From a phage, in the sequence record PZ445524.1: DNA of 64,000 bases; one strand, given 5' to 3'. Shown here piece by piece: positions 2,222-59,316 of this stretch; position 1 is the stretch's first letter; every line of letters begins with the position of its first letter. The notes under the pieces are model-generated. The model saw only the letters and a program-made list of their open reading frames with translations. It ran no database searches and was not told where the DNA came from. The position numbers were made by a program, and so were the translations under genes.

Positions 2222-2243
2222 AAAGGGACCTGGAGGTCCCTAG
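2222..2243 (-). terminator. Stem-loop gggacc-tgga-ggtccc followed by T-run, downstream of gene 43
   Basis: Perfect 6-bp GC-rich inverted repeat; minus-strand RNA has UUUUU after the stem. Confidence 0.5.
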
Positions 2244-4987: not shown

Positions 4988-5008
4988 TTGATATATTATA
5001 CTCCAAAT

Positions 5009-5026
5009 AAGGGGCCGAAGCCCCTT
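5009..5026 (-). terminator. Intercistronic hairpin ggggc-cgaa-gcccc (UUCG loop in mRNA) after regA
   Basis: mRNA GGGGCUUCGGCCCC then U-rich tract, 5 nt after the regA stop. Confidence 0.5.
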
Positions 5027-6923: not shown

Positions 6924-6957
6924 AATTTCCTCATTCAAGTTTTAGTGTAAATTATAA

Positions 6958-6971
6958 AGGGCCGAAGCCCT
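6958..6971 (-). terminator. Intercistronic hairpin agggc-cgaa-gccct between genes 45 and 44
   Basis: UUCG-loop hairpin in mRNA; weak U-tract, so may be a stability or processing element rather than a terminator. Confidence 0.35.
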
Positions 6972-6974
6972 CTA

Positions 6975-7661
6975 TTAAAAATCGTGGGTAGAATCAGCTT
7001 CAAGAGCTACTACATAATTCGCATGTTCACCTTCAAATTTAGCAGCACCTTGTTTACCTTTTGCCCAGAGCAGAAGTTTATAATTTCCTGGTTGCATTTT
7101 CATATTTGCCATATTGATAATGAAATTAAATGTATTTTCACCATCATAATCACCAAGAGTCAAAGAATATTTAACACGGGTCAAAGCAGAATCTTCTACT
7201 TTATTAAAACCGTTAATTACGATTTTACCTTCTTTTACCGTGATAGCAATTGTATCAATTTGCAGACCACGAGATACACGCAACAGTTGTTGAAGGTCTT
7301 CAGCTTTAATTTCAGTAACAACAGATGCTACCGGGAATGGAATTGGTTTATTAGGAGCAACTACTGTACTCGGATCGGCTGCTGGCCAAAAAATTGTTGA
7401 ACGAGCATCAGCAATTTTAATATTTCCATCTTCTGACTGGGAAATTTCTGCATCATCATTAACTAGAGACAGAATACCGAGAAAACCGTTCAAATCGTAA
7501 ATTGCTACATCAAAATCAATAACGTCAGAAATATTTGCTTCCGCATAAGTTGTACCATTAACTGCACGAGTCATAATAAATTGACCTGATTTAAGCATAA
7601 TGCCAGAGTTAATAGTAGCGAAATTTTTAAGCAGAGCAGTAGTATCTTTAGACAGTTTCAT
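6975..7661 (-). CDS. 45: Sliding clamp (gp45)
   Basis: 228-aa ORF, same length and position as T4 gp45. Confidence 0.95.
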   Translation of the reverse strand: MKLSKDTTALLKNFATINSGIMLKSGQFIMTRAVNGTTYAEANISDVIDFDVAIYDLNGFLGILSLVNDDAEISQSEDGNIKIADARSTIFWPAADPSTVVAPNKPIPFPVASVVTEIKAEDLQQLLRVSRGLQIDTIAITVKEGKIVINGFNKVEDSALTRVKYSLTLGDYDGENTFNFIINMANMKMQPGNYKLLLWAKGKQGAAKFEGEHANYVVALEADSTHDF

Positions 7662-11505: not shown

Positions 11506-11666
11506 ATATCAAGAACCGTCATTGAAATGCAAAATAAAATTATTGAAATAAATCCATCTGGAGTGCTAAAGAACCCAATCCAACATGCTCTAGTGAATAG
11601 ATAAAATGCAAGAAAAAGTATCACATATCCAAGAAATATCATTATATCAAACTCCGTATAAAGCTA

Positions 11667-11683
11667 AAGGGCCGAAGCCCTTT
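11667..11683 (-). terminator. Hairpin aagggc-cgaa-gccctt overlapping the agt stop
   Basis: mRNA UAA then AGGGCUUCGGCCCUU then U-rich sequence. Confidence 0.45.
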
Positions 11684-12884
11684 ATTTTGTAATAATGTCA
11701 AACTGTTCTTTAAAGCAGAAGCTTGAATCTTGATGCTGATACAAAAATTCATATGCTTTTTCTCGCTCACGGTCATAAAGAGCTCGGTCAGATGACAGTT
11801 CTTTAATACGTTCAAATGTTGATTCCATGTCATTTTCATCAAACCAAATGATACCGCTATCATGCGAGGTCAAAGGAGTATTATCAACACGGAATTTTAA
11901 ATTTTCGCCAGTAGATTTCCAGAAAACAGGAATTGTACCGCAAGCACCTAATTCAAGATGAGTATATTCGAGTGAGCGTTGTAAGTATTTCTGGTTAAGT
12001 TTACTCAACTGATATCCAAAGCCAGATTTACTCATTCGTTCAAGCATTTCACTATTAATATAACAATCTAGGATTTGTGCCGGTTGATTCGGCGCGAGAT
12101 TCATTTTATCAATCTCACGATTACCGTAATATTCATACGGAATACCTTTTTCCTTAATTGCAATAAAAGCAGGGGAACGTTCAAGACCTTCCATTACAGT
12201 GGATTTACCAGAAGGTTTTAAGAATTTTTCGTGAAAATCAAACATCTGATAAAAACCTTTCCATGTAGTCGTACGACCAATCCAACGGTTGATGTTCATG
12301 TTAATTTCAGAAACATCTTTCCAATAAGTTGACCGAACCTTCGCAATATCCATAGGAGGCTGAAAGTTATATACTGTCGGTGCTTCTTCAATATCATCAA
12401 ACAGAGAAACAGTTTCTGGATACCATTCTTTCATCAGAACTTTATTAAAATCACCATTATCAGAATGGCTAAAAATAACATCAGCTCGACGAACAGTTTC
12501 TTCTAATCCCAAATTTCGACGCAAAGAAAGAACAGAATGATCATGCTGATAAACTACAACACGAATAGAAGGTTTAATATTATCTAAAAGTTTTTTATAG
12601 TTATTAATCGTGGCTTCTTGAACGGAAGTAGCAGGAACAGAATTAATAATTAGAATATCACAATCATTAATCAGTTTAAGTGCTTTATCGTATTCTTTAG
12701 CTAAAATAACTGGAATTGAAAATGATTTGTGGTCATGAGAACTTGTACGAGTAAATGATTTATCTTTAGCATAAACCAAAGTTACTTCATGACCATTTTT
12801 AATAAACCAATCACGTTGCTCGAGTGAGAATTTTGTTACACCACAACCTTCAAGACCCCGAGCCAGAAAAATGCATACTTTCAT
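11682..12884 (-). CDS. agt: DNA alpha-glucosyltransferase
   Basis: 400-aa ORF matching T4 Agt as recalled (MKVCIFLARGLEGCGVTKF...). Confidence 0.93.
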   Translation of the reverse strand: MKVCIFLARGLEGCGVTKFSLEQRDWFIKNGHEVTLVYAKDKSFTRTSSHDHKSFSIPVILAKEYDKALKLINDCDILIINSVPATSVQEATINNYKKLLDNIKPSIRVVVYQHDHSVLSLRRNLGLEETVRRADVIFSHSDNGDFNKVLMKEWYPETVSLFDDIEEAPTVYNFQPPMDIAKVRSTYWKDVSEINMNINRWIGRTTTWKGFYQMFDFHEKFLKPSGKSTVMEGLERSPAFIAIKEKGIPYEYYGNREIDKMNLAPNQPAQILDCYINSEMLERMSKSGFGYQLSKLNQKYLQRSLEYTHLELGACGTIPVFWKSTGENLKFRVDNTPLTSHDSGIIWFDENDMESTFERIKELSSDRALYDREREKAYEFLYQHQDSSFCFKEQFDIITK

Positions 12885-12938
12885 TTAATATCCTCTTTGT
12901 TTTGGTTCATTTTACCAAAAAATTTATAAAGCAATATA

Positions 12939-12952
12939 GGAGCCGAAGCTCC
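12939..12952 (-). terminator. Hairpin ggagc-cgaa-gctcc upstream of agt
   Basis: UUCG-loop hairpin in the intergenic region before agt. Confidence 0.35.
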
Positions 12953-13128
12953 TATCCACATAATACGCCATACAGAGGCTCGTTAGAACTTTTAAATTTT
13001 ATGCGCTTATATGTTATAGTTCCTTCTGCTTTAGCTTTATCATGAGACTCTTTAAAGCGTCTCATCATTTCCTCTTTAGAGGAACGAATTTTATTATAAT
13101 CTATTTCAGAAGTCTGGGTGTTCATCTT

Positions 13129-15268: not shown

Positions 15269-15308
15269 ACATTATCCTCAATTACGTTAAAATTTTATCA
15301 TCCAAAAA

Positions 15309-15320
15309 GGGCCGAAGCCC
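15309..15320 (-). terminator. Hairpin gggc-cgaa-gccc after the 66-aa ORF
   Basis: mRNA GGGCUUCGGCCC directly after the stop codon. Confidence 0.4.
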
Positions 15321-15521
15321 TTAGCTAAACTTTTTGGCACCCTTCCAGCCTTCGTACATCATTGCGGCTGATATTAATATTGCTCCTGAGCAACTTGAAT
15401 ATTTGTGGTTCCAAAACCAATTCAGAAAAACTTCGTCATCAATACCTTGGGCTATCATATTTTCAAAGAACTGACGACGAGCTTCGGCAATTCGCTGCGA
15501 TAATTTAGATTCAGGATTCAT
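15321..15521 (-). CDS. Hypothetical small protein
   Basis: 66-aa ORF. Confidence 0.45.
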   Translation of the reverse strand: MNPESKLSQRIAEARRQFFENMIAQGIDDEVFLNWFWNHKYSSCSGAILISAAMMYEGWKGAKKFS

Positions 15522-16185: not shown

Positions 16186-16264
16186 CTTTGTGAAAATTAT
16201 TTTAGGGAATGATAAGAAGGGAACGATAGCTTAGAATGGTAATATACAGAATGTGAGAAAGAAA

Positions 16265-16277
16265 GGCCCAGAGGGCC
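16265..16277 (-). terminator. Hairpin ggccc-aga-gggcc after nrdH-like gene
   Basis: GC-rich inverted repeat directly after the stop. Confidence 0.35.
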
Positions 16278-16281
16278 CGTC

Positions 16282-16923: not shown

Positions 16924-17394
16924 TTAATCATGTTTCCACACCCCATCGGTATTTGACCAAAGCCGCTGATTATCTGATCCTCGCCACAGCTTTTTAGTCG
17001 GAAGATTTTTCTCATACTTCCCATCAATAATAACATCAACATATTTAAGCATTTCTAGTTGTTTAATATCTTCAAACTTATATCCAGTCCACAACCAAAT
17101 GCTTTTATTGGGATAAAGATTTTTTACTGTTTGAACAATGCAATGAATAACATCTCGGTTATCAGGATAGAGAGGGTCACCTCCGGTTATAGTCAATCCT
17201 TCTATATAATCATTATTCAAACATTCAATTAATTGTTCTAGTGTTTCACCAGTGAATGGAACGCCATTTCTAGCATTCCATGTTGATTTATTATAACACC
17301 CTTCACATTTATGCAAACAGCCTGTAACGAAAAGAACGGTCCTGCAGCCAGGACCATTAATAAAATCGCAAGGATAAAATCTATCATAATTCAT
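16924..17394 (-). CDS. nrdG: Anaerobic ribonucleotide reductase activating protein NrdG (radical SAM)
   Basis: 156 aa with a radical-SAM-type cysteine cluster (CLHKCEGC); same length as T4 NrdG. Confidence 0.93.
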   Translation of the reverse strand: MNYDRFYPCDFINGPGCRTVLFVTGCLHKCEGCYNKSTWNARNGVPFTGETLEQLIECLNNDYIEGLTITGGDPLYPDNRDVIHCIVQTVKNLYPNKSIWLWTGYKFEDIKQLEMLKYVDVIIDGKYEKNLPTKKLWRGSDNQRLWSNTDGVWKHD

Positions 17395-19208
17395 TGGTGT
17401 TTAACCCTATGCATGATTTCTTTATTTTTGCCGAGATTAAATCCGCGTTCGTTCGGATTTCCCAAATAACCACACGTTCTTCTTATTGTGTTCATCTTTT
17501 TAGGATCAGTTTCTCCACAAATAGAACAAACAAATCCGTTTTCAGTAGGAGTCATTTCATGGGTACTTCCACATGTAAAACATTTATCTACTGGCATATT
17601 AACACCAAAATAATCTAAATGTTGTGCAGCATAATCCCACACGGCCTCAAGACCTTTCAAGTTATTTTTCATATCAGGAAGTTCAACATAAGAAATGTGA
17701 CCACCTGTCGCAATGAAATGATATGGCGCTTCACGAGAAATCTTTTCAAACGGAGTAATATTTTCTTCTACTGAAACATGGAAACTGTTAGTGTACCAAC
17801 CTTTATCGGTAACATCTTTTACGCTTCCATATTTTTCTGTATCGAGTTTACAGAAGCGATAACAAAGGTTTTCAGCAGGAGTCGAATATAAACTAAAAGC
17901 AAATCCAGTTCTTTCAGTCCACTGTTTAAGACGAGCATTCATTTTAGTTAAAATTTCTCGTCCAATATCACGACCGGCAAGAATATTCAATTCGTGAATA
18001 CCAATGTATCCTAAAGACACTGAACTTCTACCGTTTTTAAATAACTCAATTATGTCGTCATCAGGTTTAAGACGAACCCCGAATGCACCTTCTTGGTAAA
18101 GAATAGGAGCAACAGTAGCTTTAACTCCTTTTAAGGAACTAATTCTACACATCAAAGCTTCAAAACATAAATCCATTCGTTCATTAAATAGCTCAACAAA
18201 TTTCTGTTCATTGAACTGTGTTCCAATATAAGAATCTAACGCGATGCGAGGAAGATTCAGTGTTACAACACCAAGATTATTACGTCCATCAAGAATTTCA
18301 TTACCAGTCGAATCTTTCCATACGCTCAAGAAACTACGGCATCCCATCGGAGAAACAGGAACAGATGAACCAGTGATAGCTTTATTGTTCTTAGCTGAAA
18401 TAATATCAGGATACATCCTTTTGCTTGCACACTCTAGAGCAAGCTGCTTAATATCATAGTTCGGATCATCTTTATAAAGATTAACACCTTCTTCGACGAA
18501 CATAACAAGCTTAGGGAAAATAGGAGTTATCCCATCACGACCAAGACCTTTAATACGATTTTTCAGAATTGCTTTCTGAATCATTCGTTCAGTCCAGTCA
18601 GTTCCCGTACCAAATGTAATTGTTACAAAAGGTGTTTGCCCGTTTGAACTAAAGAGAGTATTTACTTCATATTCATAAGCTTGGAATGCATCGTATACGT
18701 CTTTTTCTGTTTTAGATTGAGCATAATTCAACGCATCAGCGATTTGCCATTTTTCTGCATCTTCAATATGTTTTGCATAGGTGCGTTTAACATAAGGAGA
18801 AAGTACTTTATCTACATTCGCAAAAGTCGTTCCGCCGTATTGGTGAGAAGCAACCTGTGCAGTAATTTGTGCCATAATTGCAGTAGCAACACCGATTGAT
18901 TTAGGAGTTTCAATCTGCGCATTACCAAGCTTAAATCCGTTCTCAAGCATTCCTTTTAAATCTACTAAACAGCAATTAGTAAATGGAAGAGCAGGGGAAT
19001 AATCAATATCATGGAAATGAATAATTCCGCTTTCATGCGCTTTCATAATAAAAGACGGGACCATATTTTTGGCAATGTGTTTAGACACAATACCAGCCAT
19101 AAGGTCCCGTTGAGTTGGAAAAACACGAGAATCTTTATTAGCATTCTCGTTTAAAAGGTCTTTATTAGTTTTATGAATCAATCCTTCAATTTCTTTTTCA
19201 ATTGTCAT
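17391..19208 (-). CDS. nrdD: Anaerobic ribonucleoside-triphosphate reductase NrdD, uninterrupted
   Basis: 605-aa continuous ORF; C-terminal glycyl-radical region (RRTCGYLGNP) and zinc-ribbon cysteines. Confidence 0.95.
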   Translation of the reverse strand: MTIEKEIEGLIHKTNKDLLNENANKDSRVFPTQRDLMAGIVSKHIAKNMVPSFIMKAHESGIIHFHDIDYSPALPFTNCCLVDLKGMLENGFKLGNAQIETPKSIGVATAIMAQITAQVASHQYGGTTFANVDKVLSPYVKRTYAKHIEDAEKWQIADALNYAQSKTEKDVYDAFQAYEYEVNTLFSSNGQTPFVTITFGTGTDWTERMIQKAILKNRIKGLGRDGITPIFPKLVMFVEEGVNLYKDDPNYDIKQLALECASKRMYPDIISAKNNKAITGSSVPVSPMGCRSFLSVWKDSTGNEILDGRNNLGVVTLNLPRIALDSYIGTQFNEQKFVELFNERMDLCFEALMCRISSLKGVKATVAPILYQEGAFGVRLKPDDDIIELFKNGRSSVSLGYIGIHELNILAGRDIGREILTKMNARLKQWTERTGFAFSLYSTPAENLCYRFCKLDTEKYGSVKDVTDKGWYTNSFHVSVEENITPFEKISREAPYHFIATGGHISYVELPDMKNNLKGLEAVWDYAAQHLDYFGVNMPVDKCFTCGSTHEMTPTENGFVCSICGETDPKKMNTIRRTCGYLGNPNERGFNLGKNKEIMHRVKHQ

Positions 19209-26457: not shown

Positions 26458-26517
26458 TTTGTGTTCCTCCGTAGTTGATAGTTGTATAGTACCACAGAGG
26501 AACAGTCTTGTAAACCA

Positions 26518-26921: not shown

Positions 26922-27890
26922 TTATTTCAGAAGAGTAACCTCAGCGATTTCTTCCCAACCGTTTTTGTCGGTCATAATAAAGTCAGCAAGATAAAGAGCA
27001 GTACGCAGTGAAACATTGCGTAAACGGTTAACATTGACTTTCATCCATGATAATGCTTTATAAGTTTCTTCATCAGAAAGACCGCGCTTTTGCATCATGT
27101 CAGTTGAAAGAATAACATCTTCAACCCTGACCATAATTTCTTCATTAGTGTGAACACCCAAATCCAAATAAACTGAGCGGGACACTAATGCTTGTAAATG
27201 TGGAGCAAGTTTAGTACCACGGTCTAATTCGCGGTCAATGTCAACGTTTGTGATAAAAACAATCGTTCCTTTAAATTCAAACTCACGCTCAATGCCTTTT
27301 TCTTCTAAATAAGAAGATGCAGTGCTCCAGCAGACTTTACGGGTCTCTCCAGTGTCCAGAGCAGCTTTCAGAAGATTAAGAATGTCCATATCAGAGAAAA
27401 CATCCACATCATCAATCAAAAGGACAGAATTCTCTTCACGATTATTCCAGAGCTGTTCATAAAGACCGATACCAGAGATTTTACCGTTAATGCTTTTATA
27501 TTCAATGTATCCAATATCATTTGCTTTATTTAAAGCTTTATCTAAAGAATACGTTTTACCAATACCTGCTGCTCCCGAGATAATTAATGAACGAATATTT
27601 CCGTTAATAATACCATTCGTCATCATTCCCATAACATTAAATCTTTTATTAATGCGGGTTTTCATATCTTCATATGATTCTTTAACTTCTTCAACTTTTA
27701 CACCATCATATGAAATGTCTGATTTGTAAACCCAAACACCACGACGTTTACCGTCAATTTCAACAAAAACTTTACCATCTCCTTGTGCATCTACTGGTGC
27801 ATTATCTGGGAACCATTCGCCTAAGAGCTCAAAAGTTCCAGAGATTTCTTTACCGAAGTAGATACCCTTATTGATAGTTACAGTTTTCAT
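26922..27890 (-). CDS. P-loop ATPase
   Basis: Track start is TTG; ATG at 27888-27890 with GGAG SD gives 322 aa; Walker A GAAGIGKT and Walker B LLIDDVD. Confidence 0.6.
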   Translation of the reverse strand: MKTVTINKGIYFGKEISGTFELLGEWFPDNAPVDAQGDGKVFVEIDGKRRGVWVYKSDISYDGVKVEEVKESYEDMKTRINKRFNVMGMMTNGIINGNIRSLIISGAAGIGKTYSLDKALNKANDIGYIEYKSINGKISGIGLYEQLWNNREENSVLLIDDVDVFSDMDILNLLKAALDTGETRKVCWSTASSYLEEKGIEREFEFKGTIVFITNVDIDRELDRGTKLAPHLQALVSRSVYLDLGVHTNEEIMVRVEDVILSTDMMQKRGLSDEETYKALSWMKVNVNRLRNVSLRTALYLADFIMTDKNGWEEIAEVTLLK

Positions 27891-27919
27891 TTTATTCTCC
27901 AAATCCGTATCAGTTGATA

Positions 27920-27956
27920 GTTGTATAGTACCATAAAGCTTTATGCTTGTAAACAG
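27920..27956 (-). promoter_or_regulatory. T4-type early promoter cassette (copy of the 2100-2136 element)
   Basis: Shares the leader ccgtatcag...ttgatagttgtatagtaccat...gtaaacagtttt with the elements at 2081-2165 and 42041-42127. Confidence 0.45.
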
Positions 27957-27984
27957 TTTTGTGAAAAATTTTTGAAATAAAAAA

Positions 27985-28002
27985 GGGAGCCCGAAGGCTC
28001 CC
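27985..28002 (-). terminator. Hairpin gggagcc-cgaa-ggctccc after the nucleotidyltransferase gene
   Basis: 7-bp GC stem with UUCG loop in mRNA, 2 nt after the stop, followed by U-rich tract. Confidence 0.5.
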
Positions 28003-28004
28003 TA

Positions 28005-29852: not shown

Positions 29853-30410
29853 TCACTTTGAAATCATAGTTGGAATAACAGAATCAAGATAAGTCTTTAG
29901 TGCAATAGCTTCGTCTTTGTTTAATGTAATGATATGTGATCGAAAATCGTCAATTTGACGAATAGATACTATATCTCCCTCTTCATAGCATTTTGACACA
30001 TTTAAAATAGTTTCATCATTATGATTACAGGAGTTAGTAATAATAGCATTACATTTTTTAAACCATTTTAAATTATGTTTTCTTTTAGTAGAATCATAAA
30101 AATATTTAATGTTAGTTATAAAATTATCCCAATTATTAATTGATAAGCACATTGACTCGCTTTTAATATTAAATCCTGGGCATGAAGAATAAAAATGAAT
30201 TTTATGCTCATCATTAATGCTTACAATTTTATCAGTGTAAGCATATTCAATTTGGGTTAAACGAACAATTTCGCTAGGCGTAAAATATAACATGTCATCT
30301 TCTTGCGTCAAACGATACATGTTATTTACTTTTTCTATAGCCAATTCACCAAAAAGCGGACTAACTTCTAATACTAATCGTTTCATATTGATTCTCTTCG
30401 ACTCACTCAC
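29853..30410 (-). CDS. Hypothetical Cys-rich protein
   Basis: 185 aa with scattered cysteines; start may be GTG at 30410 or ATG at 30386. Confidence 0.45.
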   Translation of the reverse strand: MSESKRINMKRLVLEVSPLFGELAIEKVNNMYRLTQEDDMLYFTPSEIVRLTQIEYAYTDKIVSINDEHKIHFYSSCPGFNIKSESMCLSINNWDNFITNIKYFYDSTKRKHNLKWFKKCNAIITNSCNHNDETILNVSKCYEEGDIVSIRQIDDFRSHIITLNKDEAIALKTYLDSVIPTMISK

Positions 30411-31332: not shown

Positions 31333-31368
31333 TTGTATAGTACCACAGCTCAAACGGAAAGTAAACCG
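31333..31368 (-). promoter_or_regulatory. T4-type early promoter
   Basis: Minus strand GTTTAC and TGGTACTAT, upstream of the 31120-31308 gene. Confidence 0.45.
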
Positions 31369-31382
31369 GTAAAATGAAAAAA

Positions 31383-31398
31383 GTCTCCCGAAGGAGAC
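31383..31398 (-). terminator. Hairpin gtctcc-cgaa-ggagac
   Basis: mRNA GUCUCCUUCGGGAGAC, 5 nt after the stop of the 128-aa ORF. Confidence 0.45.
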
Positions 31399-31403
31399 TA
31401 ATG

Positions 31404-31790: not shown

Positions 31791-32080
31791 TCAGTCTCCA
31801 ATTTAATGTTCATAATTCTAGCGTATGATTGTGCCATCTCCGCGCCTCGTTCTATACATTCAAAATCAGAAGAGCACGGGTCATTTTTATAGGTCGTTCT
31901 CATAAAACTATAGAATTGTTCAGACGATTCTACGCTTTTATTTTCAAAAAGCATATAAACGTGCCTAATACCAGATTCCATAAATTTATCAAAATGAGGA
32001 TCGACATTCGCTTCAATCGATGGAGATAAAACAAATGACAATCCTAGCATGGCAAATAGTGCCGTTGCTTTTAAGGCCAT
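31787..32080 (-). CDS. rI: Lysis-inhibition regulator RI (antiholin)
   Basis: 97 aa with signal-anchor MALKATALFAMLGLSFVLSPSIEA; matches T4 RI as recalled. Confidence 0.8.
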   Translation of the reverse strand: MALKATALFAMLGLSFVLSPSIEANVDPHFDKFMESGIRHVYMLFENKSVESSEQFYSFMRTTYKNDPCSSDFECIERGAEMAQSYARIMNIKLETE

Positions 32081-36512: not shown

Positions 36513-36839
36513 TCAATTAGAAAATAAATTTATCCAAGATTGTTCTTTAATTAAAAATGGCTCAGAATCATATGCCATTAAACTTTGCGTAATTAGTCCT
36601 TTAAAAGGCCCATCAATAAATTCCATGGTAAAATATGGAATTTTATTCATTAGCCGTGCATTAGGAGCAGTACACAAAACTCTGCATCCTTTGAATACGC
36701 CTTTTTGCAATTTGTATTGCTTAGGATAAAATTCGCTTAAAATGTTATTTTTTGCCAAAATTTCAAAATGATTCACCAATTTATTTTTAATAGTTTTTGG
36801 CGAAAAATAAAGATATTCGAAAAGCTGAGTGTCTGTCAT
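36513..36839 (-). CDS. Hypothetical protein
   Basis: Start moved to ATG 36837-36839 (MTDTQLFEY...), overlapping the upstream stop. Confidence 0.4.
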
Positions 36840-38556: not shown

Positions 38557-39087
<531 letters not shown>

Positions 39088-40261: not shown

Positions 40262-40838
40262 ATTCTCTACATTCCTTAACAAATTTTTCTAGTAATAAAT
40301 CACTTTCAAAATTAGGATTTTCCACTAATTTATCAAAAAGACCATCAACAATATTCAAGATATTTCTTTTACTAAGAATACGTTTATTTTCATGCTTCGT
40401 TTCAGAATCAACTATAAGAGTAAAGAAATATTTCTTTCCCTGAAATTTTACTGTAGTATCAATATAGAATAAATTTGACTTTTGTAAGTTACGTTTAAAC
40501 CATGCGTCACTTAAACTATAAACACCGAGATAATCAAAATCGTCGTTTAAATAACAAACTGTCCATTCAGGGGAAATGAAATCAGTAAATTCAACATCAA
40601 AATCACATGTCAATAAATGAATTGATTCAATGCTGTTAATAAGTATTCCAGGACGTATTAAAGACTTTTTACCTCTGGAAAATCTTCCAGAAAGACTTTC
40701 ATCAGTTTCATATGAAGAACCCCAATAATAATTACGTCCTTCTGCCATACGTTTAAGAGCATTTAGCAATTGGTCTGGAACATCAACTTGCCTTTGGAAC
40801 TCTTCAAACATTGAATTGAAATCACTTTGCATTTTCAT
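40230..40838 (-). CDS. Hypothetical protein
   Basis: 202-aa ORF. Confidence 0.5.
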   Translation of the reverse strand: MKMQSDFNSMFEEFQRQVDVPDQLLNALKRMAEGRNYYWGSSYETDESLSGRFSRGKKSLIRPGILINSIESIHLLTCDFDVEFTDFISPEWTVCYLNDDFDYLGVYSLSDAWFKRNLQKSNLFYIDTTVKFQGKKYFFTLIVDSETKHENKRILSKRNILNIVDGLFDKLVENPNFESDLLLEKFVKECREYVKTITIPSK

Positions 40839-40859
40839 TCCTATTTACTCCAAGTAATA

Positions 40860-40873
40860 GGGGCCGAAGCCCC
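40860..40873 (-). terminator. Hairpin ggggc-cgaa-gcccc
   Basis: UUCG-loop hairpin 7 nt after the stop of the 197-aa gene. Confidence 0.45.
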
Positions 40874-40879
40874 TTATCA

Positions 40880-41473
40880 TTATTTCAGAGAATTAATATA
40901 TTCCTGAACATCGGCAGAGGTAGTTTCAACCCCAGAAATATTGCCATTAAATGTTTCAACTCGAGCAAGAGTATCTTCAATATCAACCTTAGTCAGTGCT
41001 GCAATTTCAACTACATCATCAGCAGTACTAATTCCAAGTGCATTCGCTGCACGAGTTTCACGGATATATTCCAATTTAACTGCAAGTTCTTGGCGAGCAT
41101 CATCTAACTCAACTACTTTCTTAGCGATTTCAATTCGCATTTCAGCATAACCATCAGCTTTAGTAGTCAGCTGTTCAGCTGTTCGACGATATAGCAAACC
41201 GAGTTTAGCATGCATTGTTACATCTTGACCTTCGGAAAGAAGCTTGCGAATTTCACGCTCTTTTGATTCAGCCTGCTTATTCTTTTCGACAATAAGTTCA
41301 CGAATACGCTTTTCTTCATTAATAGATTTAACAGAAGCAGTTTTTAGATCTTTAATTTTATCAAGCAGTTTTGCTGCTGCGGCAGTATACTGTTCTTCAA
41401 CAGATAAATTTTTAGCCATAGCAGAACCAAGTTTAGTGCGAATAAACTCAACAATTTTCTTCAGTGTGTTCAT
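40880..41473 (-). CDS. All-alpha coiled-coil protein
   Basis: 197 aa, heptad-rich and charged throughout. Confidence 0.5.
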
Positions 41474-41762: not shown

Positions 41763-42026
41763 TTATTTCATATTATTGAAATATTCTTCTGCGATTTCAT
41801 CGTTATCATGGTAAACTTTAGAAGACAGTTTAACATAACCTTCAGCAGTGAACATGTTAATCACAACCTTTACAGTATACCACTGACCATCTTCATTACC
41901 CATTACTGCGTAAGTTTCAAACATCGGATGGTCAGGACCGATAACTTTAATATCATTCACTGTACGACCAAAATCTTCTGAAACACATTTCATAAAGAAG
42001 TTGAACAGTTCACCGTAATTATCCAT
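41763..42026 (-). CDS. Hypothetical protein
   Basis: Track start is TTG; ATG at 42024-42026 preceded by the same GGAGAATAAA leader seen at 27890 and 2067. Confidence 0.45.
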   Translation of the reverse strand: MDNYGELFNFFMKCVSEDFGRTVNDIKVIGPDHPMFETYAVMGNEDGQWYTVKVVINMFTAEGYVKLSSKVYHDNDEIAEEYFNNMK

Positions 42027-42063
42027 TTTATTCTCCAAGTTGTTTTCTGTATCAGTAGTTGAT

Positions 42064-42100
42064 AGTTGTATAGTACCATGGAAGAACAGGGATGTAAACA
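42064..42100 (-). promoter_or_regulatory. T4-type early promoter cassette (near-identical copy of 2100-2136)
   Basis: About 80 bp nearly identical to 2088-2165. Confidence 0.5.
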
Positions 42101-42227
42101 GTTTTGTGAAAAATTTTTAGGGAATTCTAGGGCGGGGAGGGGCAATTAAAAGATAGGATAATATATTATAAAGGGTATAAACTAAATGACGCCTAGAGAG
42201 GTCTGGAAAGGCCTAGATACCAAAAAG

Positions 42228-42246
42228 CCCTATCATTTAGATAGGG
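42228..42246 (-). terminator. Intrinsic terminator ccctatc-loop-gataggg with U-tract
   Basis: 7-bp stem then CUUUUUG on the minus strand, 9 nt after the stop of the 187-aa gene. Confidence 0.5.
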
Positions 42247-42254
42247 ATTTAAAA

Positions 42255-42818
42255 TTATTTACCTAGTTTAGCTATTATAGCTTCGGCAGCAGCTTTTAGC
42301 TTAGATGCAGTGTTAATACGATTTTTAATTTCAGTATAAGCATCGCCAAGAACATCAAGGCTATCAGAATAAACACTTACACTATTGCGTTCGCTATTTG
42401 AAATAGAACCTTTAGTTTTACGATCAAAATCGGTATACACGTCTTGAAGATCGCGGGCTGCCTTCTTTGCATCATCCAATGCATCAAGAGCTTTATTCAA
42501 AGCATTAACATATTTTTTAGTGTCAAACATATTCTTAGAAATTTTGACAGGTGCGCGTTCAGGAGTAGCTAAGGCAGATTTAGGAACCTGTTTACCAGAT
42601 GCCAGTTTCTTAGAAATTTTGAAAAATGCTTTATTGAAATTATTTTCTTGACTCATCGTAAAAGAACTATTATCGATGTTATACATTTCAATAGCTTTAG
42701 CTTTCCACTTAAGAAAATCGCCCCGGTCTTTTGGGTCCAAGTGGAAGAATACTTTAGTAAGATCTGCTTCAGATGGTAATTTTGCTGCTTCGGTTAAAAA
42801 TTCTGCATAGGTTTTCAT
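42255..42818 (-). CDS. Internal-protein-like protein with capsid-targeting leader (187 aa)
   Basis: N-terminus MKTYAEFLTEAAK follows the MKT(Y/F)xEF(I/L)xE leader pattern of T4 internal proteins. Confidence 0.55.
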   Translation of the reverse strand: MKTYAEFLTEAAKLPSEADLTKVFFHLDPKDRGDFLKWKAKAIEMYNIDNSSFTMSQENNFNKAFFKISKKLASGKQVPKSALATPERAPVKISKNMFDTKKYVNALNKALDALDDAKKAARDLQDVYTDFDRKTKGSISNSERNSVSVYSDSLDVLGDAYTEIKNRINTASKLKAAAEAIIAKLGK

Positions 42819-42897
42819 TTAAAATCCTTGAAATAATTTATTGGTTATTAATTATTTATTATTGTAACAGCATTCTCCGAGTGATTCAAACTAAAAA

Positions 42898-42919
42898 GCC
42901 CCAACCTTTCGGTCGGGGC
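42898..42919 (-). terminator. Intrinsic terminator closing the tRNA/stable-RNA operon
   Basis: mRNA GCCCCGACC-GAAA-GGUUGGGGC then UUUUU. Confidence 0.55.
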
Positions 42920-42925
42920 TAAGCC

Positions 42926-43236: not shown

Positions 43237-43313
43237 TGGTCGAGGCAGAAGGATTCTAACCTTCAACCTACGGATTAGAAATCCGTTGCTCTATACAATT
43301 GAGCTATGCCCCG
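43237..43313 (-). tRNA. tRNA-Arg (anticodon UCU), CCA encoded
   Basis: Cloverleaf built by hand: acceptor CGGGGCA/TGCCTCG, anticodon loop TTTCTAA, T-loop GTTAGAATCC. Confidence 0.85.
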
Positions 43314-43316
43314 TAA

Positions 43317-43982
43317 TTAAAATTTCATTTTTCGACCTTTAAACCATCCTTCTGGAATTGGGTCAGTTTTCTTAATACGTTTAGAAACTTTTTCATCTAA
43401 TGAATGAATCCACATCATACCAAATTGGGAATTCTTTTCGCCCTGTTGATGTTTATTTCTGGCGTGAGATTCTTTCATTTTATTAATAGTTTCAGGAGTA
43501 TGATGCTTATTTAAAAATCTGCTATTATTTAAAAATTTTTCCCTGTATTCAGGAGTTGACCACAAGCGTTTAAATACATTTGAACCATGTTTACGATATT
43601 TTTCTTGAAGTAAAATATCATTTTTAAAACGTGACTTAAACGATTTAGCTCCTTTTAAGCTAGCATCTTTCTTCTGGTTTAGCATCCCAGGAATATTTAC
43701 ATGATCCCATCCACCTTCACCACCAAGTTTTAAATTATACACATCTGGTCTATTTAAAAACTCTTCTGTGACAATATTTTTCTCGGCTTCAAGCATAGAT
43801 TCTTTATCATCAAAATACTCTAATATTTCTTTAGAAAAATTTTCTATACCATATTTATCTTGGGCTCTTTTTAATAATTTACCAGAACCCATATATCCAT
43901 CATCTAAATTTTCGGTAGAATGCGCACCAATATAAATTTTATTATTAATTTTATTTGTTATTTTATAAGTGTAATGGAACAT
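43317..43982 (-). CDS. segB: GIY-YIG homing endonuclease SegB
   Basis: 221 aa; GIY-YIG motif (YTYKITNKINNKIYIGAHST); sits between tRNA subclusters as in T4. Confidence 0.85.
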   Translation of the reverse strand: MFHYTYKITNKINNKIYIGAHSTENLDDGYMGSGKLLKRAQDKYGIENFSKEILEYFDDKESMLEAEKNIVTEEFLNRPDVYNLKLGGEGGWDHVNIPGMLNQKKDASLKGAKSFKSRFKNDILLQEKYRKHGSNVFKRLWSTPEYREKFLNNSRFLNKHHTPETINKMKESHARNKHQQGEKNSQFGMMWIHSLDEKVSKRIKKTDPIPEGWFKGRKMKF

Positions 43983-44023
43983 AAATATCTCCTATTTCTA
44001 AGAGTATTTATGTTCCCAAAATA

Positions 44024-44095
44024 TGGCCCTGGGTGGAATTGAACCACCATCTGGCGATTATGAGTCGCTTGCTTGAACCTTCCAGCTACAGGGCC
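44024..44095 (-). tRNA. tRNA-Ile (anticodon CAU), CCA not encoded
   Basis: Acceptor GGCCCTG/CAGGGCC; anticodon loop CTCATAA; T-loop GGTTCAATTCC. Confidence 0.8.
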
Positions 44096-44096
44096 T

Positions 44097-44172
44097 TGGT
44101 GCTGATTGACGGAATCGAACCGCCGACCTTCTCATTACAAGTGAGTTGCTCTACCTACTGAGCTAAATCAGC
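44097..44172 (-). tRNA. tRNA-Thr (anticodon UGU), CCA encoded
   Basis: Acceptor GCTGATT/AATCAGC; anticodon loop CTTGTAA; T-loop GGTTCGATTCC. Confidence 0.85.
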
Positions 44173-44174
44173 AA

Positions 44175-44261
44175 CGGAGGCGATAGGATTTGAACCTATG
44201 AGTCGCCGGAGCGACTGCCGGTTTTCAAGACCGGTGCATTAAACCACTCTGCCACGCCTCC
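44175..44261 (-). tRNA. tRNA-Ser (anticodon UGA), long variable arm, CCA not encoded
   Basis: Acceptor GGAGGCG/CGCCTCC with G discriminator; anticodon loop CTTGAAA; long extra arm. Confidence 0.85.
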
Positions 44262-44263
44262 AG

Positions 44264-44337
44264 TCTCCGCGGCAGGATTTGAACCTGCGACATTCTGCTC
44301 CCAAAGCAGACGCTCTACCAAACTGAGCTACACGGAG
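44264..44337 (-). tRNA. tRNA-Pro (anticodon UGG), CCA not encoded
   Basis: Anticodon stem TCTGC/GCAGA with loop TTTGGGA; T-loop GGTTCAAATCC. Confidence 0.85.
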
Positions 44338-44347
44338 TAAATTAAAT

Positions 44348-44421
<74 letters not shown>

Positions 44422-44426
44422 AAATT

Positions 44427-44513
44427 TGGTGCGAGAAGTGGGACTCGAACCCACAAGGAAATCATTCCGCAGCATTTTAAGTGCTGTGCCTTTACCAATT
44501 TGACCATTCTCGC
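44427..44513 (-). tRNA. tRNA-Leu (anticodon UAA), long variable arm, CCA encoded
   Basis: Acceptor GCGAGAA/TTCTCGC; anticodon loop CTTAAAA; long extra arm. Confidence 0.85.
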
Positions 44514-44514
44514 G

Positions 44515-44587
44515 CTGGGAATAAAGGACTCGAACCTTTGCATCCTGGAATCAAAATCCAGTGCCTTACCAACTTGGCTAATTCCCA
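44515..44587 (-). tRNA. tRNA-Gln (anticodon UUG), CCA not encoded
   Basis: Acceptor TGGGAAT/ATTCCCA; anticodon loop TTTTGAT; only 1 nt separates it from tRNA-Leu. Confidence 0.85.
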
Positions 44588-58289: not shown

Positions 58290-59286
58290 TTCAAGTGTTA
58301 TCTATCGTGCGATAGTTACTTCAAAATTTAGAACAGAAAAAATGTTGAATTTTTATAATTCAATTGGAAGTGGTCCAGATAAAAACACTATCTTTATCAC
58401 ATTTGGAAGATCAGAACCATGGTCATCAAATGAAAATGAGGTGGGCTTTGCCCCACCTTATCCAACCGATTCTGTATTAGGCGTAACTGACATGTGGACG
58501 CATATGATGGGAACAGTAAAAGTTCTTCCATCAATGCTTGATGCAGTTATTCCTCGTCGAGATTGGGGAGATACTAGATATCCGGATCCATACACATTTA
58601 GAATTAACGATATTGTAGTGTGTAACTCAGCTCCTTACAATGCTACTGAATCAGGCGCAGGCTGGTTAGTATATCGTTGTTTAGATGTTCCTGATACCGG
58701 AATGTGTTCAATCGCATCTTTAACTGATAAAGATGAATGCCTTAAGTTAGGTGGAAAATGGACTCCTTCTGCTAGGTCAATGACTCCGCCTGAAGGCCGA
58801 GGAGATGCTGAAGGAACAATTGAACCTGGAGACGGATATGTTTGGGAATATCTATTTGAGATTCCGCCTGATGTATCTATAAATAGATGTACGAATGAAT
58901 ATATCGTGGTTCCTTGGCCTGAGGAATTAAAAGAAGACCCGACTAGATGGGGGTATGAAGATAATCTCACTTGGCAACAAGATGATTTTGGATTAATTTA
59001 CCGTGTTAAGGCAAATACTATCCGTTTTAAAGCATATTTAGATTCAGTTTATTTTCCTGAAGCTGCATTGCCAGGAAATAAAGGATTTAGACAAATATCA
59101 ATAATCACGAATCCTCTTGAAGCTAAAGCTCATCCAAATGACCCAAACGTTAAAGCTGAAAAGGATTATTATGACCCAGAAGATTTAATGAGGCATTCGG
59201 GTGAAATGATTTACATGGAAAATAGGCCACCTATTATTATGGCAATGGATCAAACAGAAGAAATCAATATTCTGTTTACATTTTAA
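58282..59286 (+). CDS. 8: Baseplate wedge protein gp8
   Basis: 334-aa ORF, T4 gp8 length and position. Confidence 0.95.
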   Translation: MNDSSVIYRAIVTSKFRTEKMLNFYNSIGSGPDKNTIFITFGRSEPWSSNENEVGFAPPYPTDSVLGVTDMWTHMMGTVKVLPSMLDAVIPRRDWGDTRYPDPYTFRINDIVVCNSAPYNATESGAGWLVYRCLDVPDTGMCSIASLTDKDECLKLGGKWTPSARSMTPPEGRGDAEGTIEPGDGYVWEYLFEIPPDVSINRCTNEYIVVPWPEELKEDPTRWGYEDNLTWQQDDFGLIYRVKANTIRFKAYLDSVYFPEAALPGNKGFRQISIITNPLEAKAHPNDPNVKAEKDYYDPEDLMRHSGEMIYMENRPPIIMAMDQTEEINILFTF

Positions 59287-59291
59287 ATTAA

Positions 59292-59316
59292 GGGAGCCCA
59301 TGGGCTCCCTTTTTCT
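59292..59316 (+). terminator. Intrinsic terminator after gene 8
   Basis: Palindrome gggagccc-a-tgggctccc followed by TTTTTC. Confidence 0.6.

Follow-up and report, generated by a model that had tools for sequence, protein, structure and literature searches.

Eight C(UUCG)G hairpins recur directly behind stop codons in the 64,000-nucleotide stretch of phage DNA analysed here (record PZ445524.1, hereafter the window), well beyond what chance would produce, and they belong to a class already known in phage T4. The explanation that we consider best, with a probability of about 75%, is that these hairpins serve as gene-end punctuation of graded strength at the RNA level. A shared role in forming transcript 3' ends, in stabilising mRNA or in both, as put forward in the first-pass annotation, is the standard reading of the T4 hairpins and is partly supported: sense orientation, location at gene ends, stable stems and compensatory changes all fit it, but the role is not uniform among sites. 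Its restriction to early genes fails, because T4 has these hairpins behind late genes as well (23, 37, soc and hoc).

Hairpins at gene ends

The minus strand of the window contains eight hairpins of the C(UUCG)G type, all perfectly paired, with stems of 6-9 bp (Table 1). All of them start at -4 to +5 nt relative to the upstream ORF's stop codon, which four of them include in the stem; under a model of uniform placement within intergenic spacers, the joint chance of such adjacency is ~4e-6. The first-pass annotation had thus placed the eight correctly, to within ~5 nt and directly after stop codons, but had spoken of at least nine, where the window holds exactly eight. The three hairpins that it called related, at 2225, 16265 and 42228, are real, terminator-like and 3-12 nt from a stop codon, but their loops (UCCA, UCU and UAAAU) are neither UUCG nor UNCG. 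The 187-aa ORF upstream of the last of these is present in the window and absent from T4. Missing from the earlier list was a strong GAAA-tetraloop terminator downstream of a tRNA/small-RNA cluster (42897-42920). The late-gene terminator at 59290-59311 has the same stem as the hairpin at 27984 and a different loop.

CTTCGG occurs 32 times in the window, against 13.0 +/- 3.4 in shuffles, and C(UUCG)G hairpins with at least six pairs are observed eight times, where a dinucleotide shuffle yields 0.005 on average and none of 200 shuffles gave more than 1. Of the minus strand's 38 tetraloop hairpins, UUCG caps eight and every other loop sequence appears at most once; the 15 plus-strand copies of CTTCGG are never flanked by more than three pairs. 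Apart from the shortness of the motif, nothing favours a compositional or chance artefact, and the excess over shuffles, the status of UUCG as the sole repeated loop and the conservation of all eight hairpins in T4, two of them with covariation across genera, leave that explanation a negligible probability.

The RNA folding proposed as a check came out well in energy and less clearly in significance. Folded in context, seven of the eight sites have the C(UUCG)G hairpin as their minimum-free-energy structure, and the energies of the isolated hairpins, from -8.8 to -15.7 kcal/mol, indicate a GC-rich hairpin in the nascent RNA at every site; at 15307 a competing fold keeps the inner five of six pairs. 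Context energies run from -10.8 to -17.7 kcal/mol, but the corresponding z-scores are only -1.3 to -4.3 (modest, -1.3 to -2.0, at four sites), because shuffles of short GC-rich segments fold as well. For segments this short, z-scores of single sites discriminate weakly, and the hairpin census of the whole window against dinucleotide shuffles is the stronger test.

Table 1. Hairpins, terminators, promoter elements and RegB-type motifs in the window; stem arms are written on either side of the loop, and energies are those of the isolated hairpin unless marked.
Feature	Position	Strand	Sequence	Stem and energy	T4 position	Remarks
C(UUCG)G hairpin	5009-5026	minus	AAGGGGC-UUCG-GCCCCUU	7 bp, -12.1 kcal/mol	29952-29969	begins 2 nt past regA stop codon; ends 58 nt ahead of gene 43 start
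C(UUCG)G hairpin	6954-6975	minus	AUAGAGGGC-UUCG-GCCCUUUAU	9 bp, -12.2 kcal/mol; context z -4.28	31899-31914	overlaps gene 45 stop codon; 30 nt to gene 44 start
C(UUCG)G hairpin	11665-11684	minus	UAAAGGGC-UUCG-GCCCUUUA	8 bp, -11.0 kcal/mol	36607-36626	a-gt stop codon UAA within stem
C(UUCG)G hairpin	12936-12955	minus	AUAGGAGC-UUCG-GCUCCUAU	8 bp, -11.5 kcal/mol	38715-38734	a-gt.2 (DUF5486) stop codon UAG within stem; GGAG sequestered in 5' arm
C(UUCG)G hairpin	15307-15322	minus	AAGGGC-UUCG-GCCCUU then UUU	6 bp, -8.8 kcal/mol		five consecutive U from G-C core; overlaps stop codon of 66-aa DUF5490 ORF (T4 55.3 homologue); 55.2 start codon 38 nt downstream
C(UUCG)G predicted terminator	27974-28003 (hairpin 27984-28003)	minus	AGGGAGCC-UUCG-GGCUCCCU then UUUUUAUUUC	8 bp, -15.7 kcal/mol; context -17.7 kcal/mol, z -3.7	55414-55433	begins 1 nt past nrdC.11 stop codon
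C(UUCG)G predicted terminator	31372-31399 (hairpin 31382-31399)	minus	AGUCUCC-UUCG-GGAGACU then UUUUUCAUUU	7 bp, -10.3 kcal/mol	58797-58814	begins 4 nt past rI.-1 stop codon
C(UUCG)G hairpin	40859-40874	minus	AGGGGC-UUCG-GCCCCU	6 bp, -11.2 kcal/mol	69291-69306	begins 5 nt past e.6 stop codon; 20 nt to e.5 start; GGAG 7 nt downstream
Hairpin, terminator-like	2224-2241	minus	AGGGACC-UCCA-GGUCCCU then UUUUCAUACA			12 nt past gene 43 stop codon
Triloop hairpin, terminator-like	16264-16278	minus	GGGCCC-UCU-GGGCCU then UUCUUUCU	z -3.3		3 nt past nrdH stop codon
Pentaloop hairpin	42228-42246	minus	CCCUAUC-UAAAU-GAUAGGG then CUUUUUGG			8 nt past stop codon of 187-aa ORF
GAAA-tetraloop terminator	42897-42920	minus	AGCCCCGACC-GAAA-GGUUGGGGCU then UUUUAGUUUG	-24.9 kcal/mol, z -4.2		
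Late-gene terminator	59290-59311	plus	AAGGGAGCC-CAUG-GGCUCCCUU then UUUCUUUAUA	z -3.9		between genes 8 and 9
Early-promoter match	27924-27954	minus	GTTTACA-N-TGGTACTATA			30 nt downstream of 27984 terminator, with which it forms a PeSL-type cassette
Early-promoter match	31336-31366	minus	GTTTACT-N-TGGTACTATA			16 nt downstream of 31382 terminator; upstream of mobD.5
Middle-promoter-like element	11641-11665	minus	AGCTTTA (MotA-box-like), 12 bp, TATAAT			overlaps last base of 3' arm of hairpin 11665
Middle-promoter-like element	12909-12933	minus	TGCTTTA (MotA box), 12 bp, TAAAAT			begins 2 nt after hairpin 12936
RegB-consensus-like motif	4994-5004	minus	GGAGUAUAAUA			4 nt 3' of hairpin 5009; 9/11 match to GGAGAAUAAAA
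RegB-consensus-like motif	15293-15303	minus	GGAUGAUAAAA (GGAUAAUAAAA in T4)			3 nt after hairpin 15307

A hairpin class known from T4

The window belongs to a Tequatrovirus that is ~98% identical to T4 and covers about 24.9–91.9 kb of the T4 map, where hairpins occupy the orthologous positions of all eight sites. It was reportedly from such intercistronic hairpins of T4 that Tuerk et al. discovered the UUCG tetraloop in 1988. As that work is quoted in later papers, CUUCGG hairpins are 'especially abundant' in T4, 'predominantly in intergenic regions', and can halt reverse transcriptase (PMC8948821, PMC4371310); the form quoted in the first of these has 2-8 flanking pairs, with G-U permitted. 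Each of the eight sites has a UUCG loop closed by a C-G pair, which none of the three related hairpins has, complementary arms (stems of 6-9 pairs, including 4-6 G-C pairs) and a location between ORFs on the coding strand of a T4-type phage. They belong to the intercistronic C(UUCG)G hairpins known from T4-type phages, a class with a short G+C stem, a cap formed by the unusually stable UUCG tetraloop and a sense-strand position directly past the stop codon. Loop, C-G closure, complementarity and intergenic place being all shared, these are the same objects as those of 1988, from which they show no essential difference. Window and T4 differ at the 45/44 and 55.3/55.2 sites, where G-U has become G-C and both window stems are one G-C pair stronger, and at 12936, where the hairpin precedes a-gt in the window and mobB in T4.

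A search of Rfam at gathering thresholds found only eight tRNAs and no family covering the hairpins, and the T4 records NC_000866 and AF158101 list no curated terminator or promoter features at these regions. No genome-wide map of T4 3' ends or termination was found in the searchable literature. The exact 14-mer AGGGCTTCGGCCCT occurs in more than 120 IMG/VR contigs of all sizes; judged from these matches the motif is widespread in phages, which says nothing on mechanism.

Graded U-tails and read-through

The sites differ in the U-tract after the stem, which holds 7/8 U at 27984 and 6/8 U at 31382, is intermediate at 15307, weak at 5009, 6954 and 11665, and poor at 12936 and 40859. U-tail scores extend from the top 0.1% of background (27984, 31382) down to about the top 9% (12936, 40859), and only 27984 and 31382 among the eight UUCG sites are predicted to be canonical intrinsic terminators. 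According to PMC2988022, a T4 terminator consists of a GC stem, a 4-nt loop and poly(U). With canonical Rho-independent terminators of E. coli and T4 the window hairpins share a GC-rich stem, a 4-nt loop, sense orientation and a place just past the stop codon, and 27984 and 31382 share the strong U-tract as well; unlike them, six of the eight lack a U-tract of 7-8 nt, and three of these six require read-through. At those three (6954, 15307 and 40859) the next start codon follows 20-38 nt downstream, too near for a promoter to fit, so that transcription must largely read through these leaky hairpins to reach genes 44/62, 55.2 and e.5.

How unusual the six weaker tails appear hinges on whether the outer A-U pairs are assigned to the stem or to the tail. 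Scored from the full stem, five lie at background fractions of 0.20-0.45 and 15307 at 0.04; with the G-C core as starting point, four of these tails fall in the top 0.4-2.6% of background. The first count, together with the reliance of downstream genes on read-through and the RegB-type motifs found 3-9 nt downstream at three sites (PMC1702504), would suit six hairpins that cause no termination whatever and act purely post-transcriptionally, as end-points of decay or processing that keep the upstream cistron stable, like REP-type or 3' stem-loop stabilisers. The second count argues against so strict a reading, as does the T4 mobE terminator, whose weak poly(U) still stops ~30% of transcripts (PMC2988022); a post-transcriptional role is in any case compatible with partial termination and does not exclude it. 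We regard the strict version as a real but minority possibility, and the weak-tail hairpins as most likely both partial terminators and barriers to 3'-exonucleases. As with the 3' stem-loop and REP-type stabilisers of polycistronic bacterial mRNAs, a stable intercistronic hairpin stands just 3' of a cistron needed in excess, such as gene 45 relative to genes 44 and 62, but unlike REP-type elements the window hairpins are much shorter, single and capped by a specific tetraloop.

Promoter cassettes and selection on RNA structure

Promoter-terminator cassettes of T4-like phages, termed PeSL and PmSL, were reportedly described by Arbiol et al. in 2010, and again by Comeau et al. in 2014 (PMC4122927). 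For the PST/T4 pair, the PeSL consensus is TTTACW-N17-TAYWAT and the published stem consensus, AGNA-loop-TCNT, is loose and without preference for UUCG loops; PmSL cassettes, made of a stem-loop, a Mot box and a -10 element, have been described for phage nt-1 (PMC4122927). The PeSL order of stem-loop, sigma70-type early promoter, Shine-Dalgarno and start codon is found at two UUCG sites, 27984 and 31382, and at two hairpins with other loops, 2224 and 42228, and is lacking at the other six UUCG sites; strict early promoters follow no UUCG hairpin other than 27984 and 31382. The mobD.5 promoter, behind the latter, appears in T4 as a primer-extension stop (PMC1702504). By sequence pattern, 11665 and 12936 have the PmSL order, with a Mot box and a -10 at the proper distance, whereas 6954, 15307 and 40859 have no promoter partner. 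Behind 5009 the pattern search gave neither an early- nor a MotA-type promoter, a -10-like TATAAT being all that is present.

The loops themselves were also considered as disguised MotA boxes, six of the eight hairpins reading GCTTCGGC, a sequence similar to the Mot-box core GCTT(T/C)A. This candidate was rejected: no -10 lies consistently 11-13 bp past the loop (nearest TAnnnT at 15, 13, none, none, 15 and 18), and the true Mot boxes near 11665 and 12936 stand apart from the loops, 3' of the hairpin.

A function mainly at the DNA level would make the stem-loops of PeSL/PmSL cassettes homology patches for the shuffling of modules between T4-type phages. Consistent with it are the cassette architecture at 27984 and 31382 (early promoter) and at 11665 and 12936 (Mot box and -10; PMC4122927), a promoter cassette of ~95 nt that is nearly identical at 2040-2157 and 42000-42125, and identical hairpin sequences at unrelated loci of the T4 genome. 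A further point is the boundary of mobB presence and absence ~36-60 nt downstream of hairpin 12936, seen in one genome pair, window versus T4; the promoter-like element at 12909-12933 precedes mobB in T4 and a-gt in the window, where mobB is absent. In the same single pair, extra DNA (42230-42890) adjoins hairpin 42228.

Homology, however, would be strand-neutral, whereas in T4, 19 of 20 hairpins carry UUCG in the transcript that is sense to the local genes (p = 2e-5). At both the 45/44 and pre-gene-43 junctions the hairpin is present in eight other genera, with compensatory changes in 7/8 and 6/8 stem pairs, respectively, in alignments that were hand-anchored on the loop and so lean towards structure. 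The pre-gene-43 hairpin is retained even where regA is replaced upstream by other ORFs. Since the stems covary with pairing kept and the loop stays UUCG, selection acts on RNA structure and not on sequence identity: the hairpins are structurally selected. Given also that 6954 and 40859 stand without a promoter partner, a mainly DNA-level function is improbable, and recombination is best viewed as a by-product of repeated regulatory cassettes.

RegB-type motifs near weak-tail hairpins

The RegB/S1 consensus GGAGAAUAAAA (PMC1702504) is GGAG/U followed by a 7-nt A-rich stretch free of C. The match to it is 9/11 at 5009 and 15307 and 7/11 at 11665 and 40859, and the three weak-tail sites with motifs 3-9 nt 3' of the hairpin include 11665 and 15307. 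The motif at 4994-5004 has A at positions 6, 8 and 11 and contains the TATAAT hexamer mentioned above; GGAGUAUAAU is kept upstream of gene 43 in at least four to five other Tevenvirinae genera, including Mosig-, Dhaka-, Karam- and Jiaodavirus. Within the middle-promoter-like element behind 11665, the GGAG at 11652-11655 is the Shine-Dalgarno of ORF 47.1. RegB is reported to cut the GGAG of ORF 47.1 moderately in T4, and a GGAU of ORF 55.2 (PMC1702504); the 55.3/55.2 spacer holds two GGAU motifs, either of which could match the reported cut. As GGAG is a common Shine-Dalgarno in T4, its occurrence close to a hairpin may be incidental where the spacer is short.

Weak-tail hairpins might be something other than terminators in the main, and might form with a RegB-type site a few nucleotides downstream a conserved two-part RNA-processing module, in which a RegB cut would leave an exonuclease-proof 3' end on the upstream message and uncouple or inactivate the downstream one, and contact with the stop codon may tune ribosome release or re-initiation, as in gene 60. 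The hairpin and GGAGUAUAAU upstream of gene 43 offer an example of such an arrangement. We hold this module to be a long shot. A role for RNase III was rejected, stems of 6-9 bp being, as is generally known, too short to be its substrates.

Stop-codon contact and translation

The bypass hairpin of T4 gene 60 (T4 2834-2857) is likewise of the C(UUCG)G type and begins at a stop codon (PMC3014915). It lies inside a coding gap, acts together with the nascent peptide and with GGA codons that match at take-off and landing, and in a published model blocks the A site to release factor (PMC3014915). By analogy, the window hairpins might modulate translation termination or ribosome recycling, or block coupling or re-initiation onto the next cistron. 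The close and non-random placement of all eight at stop codons, four of which they include, would agree with such an action, and uncoupling would make sense for the downstream genes 44 and 43, which are under translational repressors of their own, RegA and gp43. Unlike the gene 60 hairpin, each window hairpin is followed by an ordinary Shine-Dalgarno and start codon. In other genera, however, 5-31 nt separate hairpin and stop codon at the 45/44 junction, so that tight adjacency is not conserved there, and adjacency is also explained by compact spacers whose 3' part is occupied by promoter and Shine-Dalgarno, and by UAA supplying A-U pairs to the stem. A translational function is quite unlikely on this balance.

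Probable graded punctuation of transcription units

In bacterial mRNA decay, hairpins act as barriers to exonucleases, and punctuation at the RNA level would combine this property with termination in proportions that vary from site to site. At 27984 and 31382, the U-tract of 7-8 nt would make a full Rho-independent terminator that closes the transcription unit, and the strong early promoter 16-30 nt downstream would restart transcription. At 5009, 6954, 11665, 12936, 15307 and 40859, host RNA polymerase would mostly read through, with termination partial at best. Host 3'-exonucleases degrade T4 mRNAs (PMC3014915), and the formed hairpin would be a roadblock for the 3'-to-5' enzymes PNPase, RNase II and RNase R. 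It would thereby fix a stable 3' end of the upstream cistron just past the stop codon, either after termination or after an endonucleolytic cleavage downstream, which at some sites may be made by RegB at the adjacent GGAG/GGAU and A-rich motif. From termination efficiencies, exonuclease protection and a RegB link of this kind, which we infer, neighbouring cistrons of one polycistronic mRNA would come to unequal abundance, as for gene 45 versus genes 44 and 62.

As a discovery the finding has little weight, the same observation having been made in T4 in 1988 and hairpin-plus-promoter cassettes having been described in 2010-2014. Its value lies in annotation, to which it would bring two firm transcription-unit boundaries (27984 and 31382), several leaky gene-end hairpins and the promoters that follow them.

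Census of C(UUCG)G hairpins

Extending base pairing outward by script from every CTTCGG in the window yields eight perfect C(UUCG)G hairpins, all on the minus strand and referred to here by their start coordinates (see table); none of the 15 plus-strand CTTCGG in the window has more than three flanking pairs. The first-pass annotation had counted at least nine hairpins of this type, more than the window holds, but rightly placed them at stop codons: measured from the upstream ORF's stop codon, all eight begin at −4 to +5 nt, and four carry the UAA or UAG inside the stem. Under uniform placement within intergenic spacers, such adjacency has a joint probability of ~4e-6.

The hexamer CTTCGG occurs 32 times in the window, against 13.0 ± 3.4 in shuffles. 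More telling is a count of every perfect tetraloop hairpin that has six or more pairs, three or more of them G-C: the minus strand carries 38, compared with 17.7 ± 4.3 in 200 dinucleotide shuffles, and C(UUCG)G accounts for eight of these, where the shuffles predict 0.005. No other loop is seen more than once among the 38. When the sites are folded in 46–52 nt of context, the minimum free energy structure is the hairpin at seven of the eight, only the inner five pairs being retained at 15307. Context energies range from −10.8 to −17.7 kcal/mol (z-scores −1.3 to −4.3), so that the weak folding named in the annotation as grounds for rejection is not what we found. Three further hairpins, described there as related, exist and resemble terminators, yet none has a loop of the UUCG type. 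The inventory of eight UUCG and three non-UUCG terminator-like hairpins is confirmed.

Features of the window, with tail scores and adjacent RegB-type motifs for the UUCG hairpins
Feature	Coordinates	Strand	Stem or loop	Location or remark	T4 position	Weighted T score of U-tail	Background at least as high	RegB-type motif after hairpin
UUCG hairpin	5009–5026	minus	7 bp, −12.1 kcal/mol	regA stop to gene 43	29952	2.96	2.1%	GGAGUAUAAUA, 4 nt
UUCG hairpin	6954–6975	minus	9 bp, −12.2 kcal/mol	gene 45 stop to gene 44	31899	3.19	1.3%	
UUCG hairpin	11665–11684	minus	8 bp, −11.0 kcal/mol	a-gt stop to 47.1	36607	2.89	2.6%	GGAGUUUGAUA, 9 nt
UUCG hairpin	12936–12955	minus	8 bp, −11.5 kcal/mol	a-gt.2 stop to a-gt (mobB in T4)	38715	2.13	~9%	
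UUCG hairpin	15307–15322	minus	6 bp, −8.8 kcal/mol	55.3 homologue stop to 55.2	40823	3.84	0.4%	GGAUGAUAAAA, 3 nt
UUCG hairpin	27984–28003	minus	8 bp, −15.7 kcal/mol	nrdC.11 stop to nrdC.10	55414	4.99	top 0.1%	
UUCG hairpin	31382–31399	minus	7 bp, −10.3 kcal/mol	rI.-1 stop to mobD.5	58797	4.81	top 0.1%	
UUCG hairpin	40859–40874	minus	6 bp, −11.2 kcal/mol	e.6 stop to e.5	69291	2.11	~9%	GGAGUAAAUAG, 7 nt
Related hairpin	2224–2241		loop UCCA	terminator-like				
Related hairpin	16264–16278		loop UCU	terminator-like				
Related hairpin	42228–42246		loop UAAAU	terminator-like				
Promoter-leader cassette	2040–2157	minus		~95 nt				
Promoter-leader cassette	42000–42125	minus		~95 nt				
Related cassette copy	27890–27960			after hairpin 27984				
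Early promoter	26485–26515	minus		2 nt after stop codon				
Cassette differences from T4	~12875–12900, ~17374–17394, ~18670–18673, 42230–42890			local alignment				
187-aa ORF	42255–42818			in non-T4 DNA				
55.3 homologue ORF	15321–15521				40799–41038			
Eight tRNA genes	43240–44587	minus		counterpart of T4 tRNA cluster				
Terminator	42897–42920	minus	GAAA tetraloop, very stable	further downstream of tRNA genes				
Late-gene terminator	59290–59311	plus	loop CAUG	between genes 8 and 9				

Comparison with T4

The window has a G+C content of ~34%, and its genes lie on the minus strand to ~50 kb and switch to the plus strand beyond. Local alignment against T4 26–93 kb shows collinearity with T4 ~24.9–91.9 kb at 91–99% identity (97.7–97.9% between the 4-kb stretch around hairpin 27984 and NC_000866 53428–57430), and T4 gene names are therefore transferable. 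The orthologous T4 positions carry hairpins at all eight sites. Absent from the window are mobB, mobC and the nrdD intron with I-TevII, the mobB difference sitting just downstream of hairpin 12936; conversely, the ~660 bp of extra DNA at 42230–42890 are not found in T4 and encode a 187-aa ORF with no Pfam match above cut-off. Just ahead of hairpin 15307, window and T4 differ by a 1-nt indel: the 55.3 homologue of the window (66 aa, covering positions 1–62 of the 62 in the DUF5490 model) stops in the hairpin, whereas the annotation of T4 gene 55.3 (79 aa) reads through it. Either a frameshift or an annotation artefact may account for the C-terminal extension in T4.

The same search in the full T4 sequence, joined from five pieces and requiring at least five pairs, returned ~20 C(UUCG)G hairpins (plus strand 2, minus strand 18). 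Relative to the local genes, 19 of these 20 read in the sense direction (p = 2e-5), which argues for a function in RNA, not DNA, and ~15 have an annotated stop codon within 6 nt. One, at T4 2834–2857, is the gene 60 translational-bypass hairpin (PMC3014915). The proposed restriction to early genes does not hold, as hairpins also follow the late genes 23 and soc (both with a U-tract), 37 and hoc. T4 UUCG hairpins were described by Tuerk et al. 1988, as summarised in a 2022 paper (PMC8948821), and a study of RegB (PMC1702504) states that "the stabilizing UUCG tetraloop" is often found in T4 intergenic stem-loops such as terminators, and that these stem-loops often sequester GGAG. Given such accounts, the observation in the window is the classical one; gene-end UUCG hairpins are an already known, textbook case.

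The loop-proximal second pair divides the T4 hairpins into two groups: C-C(UUCG)G-G hairpins mostly have strong U-tracts (T4 15303, 55414, 58797, 106536, 130339) and G-C(UUCG)G-C hairpins mostly weak tails (T4 29952, 31899, 36607, 38715, 40823, 69291, 159625). The split in the window is 2 to 6, with no exception. Identical T4 hairpins also occur at unrelated loci, AAGGGGCTTCGGCCCCTT after both regA and hoc (29952, 110165) and AAGGACTCCTTCGGGAGTCCTTTT after both soc and 30.9 (15303, 130339), suggesting gene-end copying or a very narrow sequence optimum. Within the window, the stem GGGAGCC/GGCUCCC is common to the early terminator 27984 and to the late-gene terminator between genes 8 and 9, with loops UUCG and CAUG respectively.

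U-tails and downstream promoters

U-tails were graded by a proximity-weighted T score, our own construction after the d'Aubenton-Carafa scheme, against a background of 5000 random positions; tabulated scores are counted from the G-C core of the stem. Counting from the full stem instead leaves all but one of the six weaker sites in the ordinary range, at background fractions of 0.20–0.45; the exception is 15307 (0.04). A strict T4 early promoter, GTTTAC-N15–17-GGTACTATA, a pattern matched five times in the window but never in shuffles, follows only the strong-tail hairpins among the eight, 30 nt downstream of 27984 and 16 nt downstream of 31382. A mobD.5 promoter has also been observed experimentally in T4 (PMC1702504). 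The fifth match, at 26485, has no hairpin before it, so that a stem-loop partner does not accompany every early promoter in the window.

Among the weaker sites, 11665 and 12936 each have a Mot-box-like element 0–2 nt past the hairpin, spaced 12 bp from a −10 hexamer. At 6954, 15307 and 40859, the next start codon lies 30, 38 and 20 nt away, too short a distance for a promoter, so that transcription of genes 44/62, 55.2 and e.5 has to pass the hairpin, which is leaky by necessity. For comparison, ~30% of transcripts end at a T4 terminator whose poly(U) tract is weak (PMC2988022). The coupling of strong tails to restart promoters, and of weak tails to dependent downstream genes, supports a reading as graded terminators. 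Of the shared role first proposed for these hairpins, the gene-end function is well supported at the RNA level; their uniformity is not, since U-tails and promoters differ.

These arrangements recall the PeSL described for the PST/T4 pair (stem-loop, early promoter TTTACW-N17-TAYWAT, Shine-Dalgarno and start codon) and PmSL, its Mot-box version (PMC4122927): 27984 and 31382 share the layout of the former, 11665 and 12936 that of the latter. A near-identical ~95-nt cassette that matches published PeSL elements follows each of the non-UUCG hairpins 2224 and 42228, comprising an A/T-rich stretch, an early promoter GTTTACATCCCTGTTCTTC(T/C)ATGGTACTATA, a leader CAACTATCAACTACTGATAC and GGAGAAT(G/A)AAATG. 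Its Shine-Dalgarno equals the RegB consensus GGAGAAUAAAA, and hairpin 27984 has a related copy of the cassette behind it. Repeats of this kind would plausibly allow recombination, as a by-product.

Conservation across genera

Anchoring on the conserved block 45-44-62-regA-43, we compared representatives of eight other genera (Moonvirus, Jiaodavirus, Karamvirus, Mosigvirus, Dhakavirus, Tulanevirus, Hadassahvirus and Yersinia phage MHG19), at 64–73% identity to the window. All eight have a stable hairpin shortly 3' of the gene 45 stop codon, with loops UUCG in four, GAAA in two and others in two. All eight also have one directly 3' of the last ORF before gene 43 (loop UUCG in six), even where that ORF is an inserted hypothetical gene and not regA (KM16, KMB17, UGJNEcP3, MHG19, AbTZA1). 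Compensatory changes affect 7/8 pairs at the 45/44 junction and 6/8 before gene 43, with 82% and 95% of cells paired; no shuffle in 500 reached the observed covariation score or paired-cell percentage, and the covariation signal collapses when partners are slid by one to three columns. As these alignments are anchored on the loop and hence lean towards structure, the independent fact is that each genome carries a hairpin at the corresponding junction. Together, strand bias and covariation indicate that the hairpins themselves are kept for an RNA function. Five of the eight window hairpins share the 14-mer AGGGCTTCGGCCCT as their stem-loop core, and exact copies of it occur in more than 120 IMG/VR viral contigs of 4 to 293 kb among the matches listed, which indicates that the same hairpin is used well beyond T4-like genomes.

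RegB-type motifs and mRNA 3' ends

RegB-type motifs lie close to four window hairpins. GGAG is also a common Shine-Dalgarno sequence. The T4 counterpart of the motif at 15307, GGAUAAUAAAA, follows the strict consensus except for U at position 4, and the 55.2 spacer holds two GGAU motifs, either being a candidate for a reported cut. According to PMC1702504, RegB targets GGAG/U when an A-rich heptamer lacking C comes next (consensus GGAGAAUAAAA), and in T4 it cuts the GGAG of ORF 47.1 moderately, as well as one GGAU of ORF 55.2. Upstream of gene 43, GGAGUAUAAU is kept in four further genera, with related forms in two more; in Tevenvirinae genera it (GGAUGAUAAAA in Moonvirus KM16) has the UUCG hairpin on one side and the hairpin of the gp43 translational operator on the other. 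A Mot box precedes it in some genomes, such as ATTGCTTTA in MHG19. GGAGUAUAAU could serve as a −10 element, as a RegB site, or as both.

After a RegB cut beside a hairpin, the upstream cistron would end in a tetraloop hairpin, and such a 3' end should resist the host 3'-exonucleases that degrade T4 mRNA (PMC3014915). That the hairpins chiefly form a conserved processing module with RegB sites, or act in translation termination as their contact with stop codons suggests, is improbable. We favor, with a probability of about three in four, a reading as graded intrinsic terminators doubling as exonuclease-resistant 3'-end structures, two of them full terminators in PeSL cassettes and six leaky.
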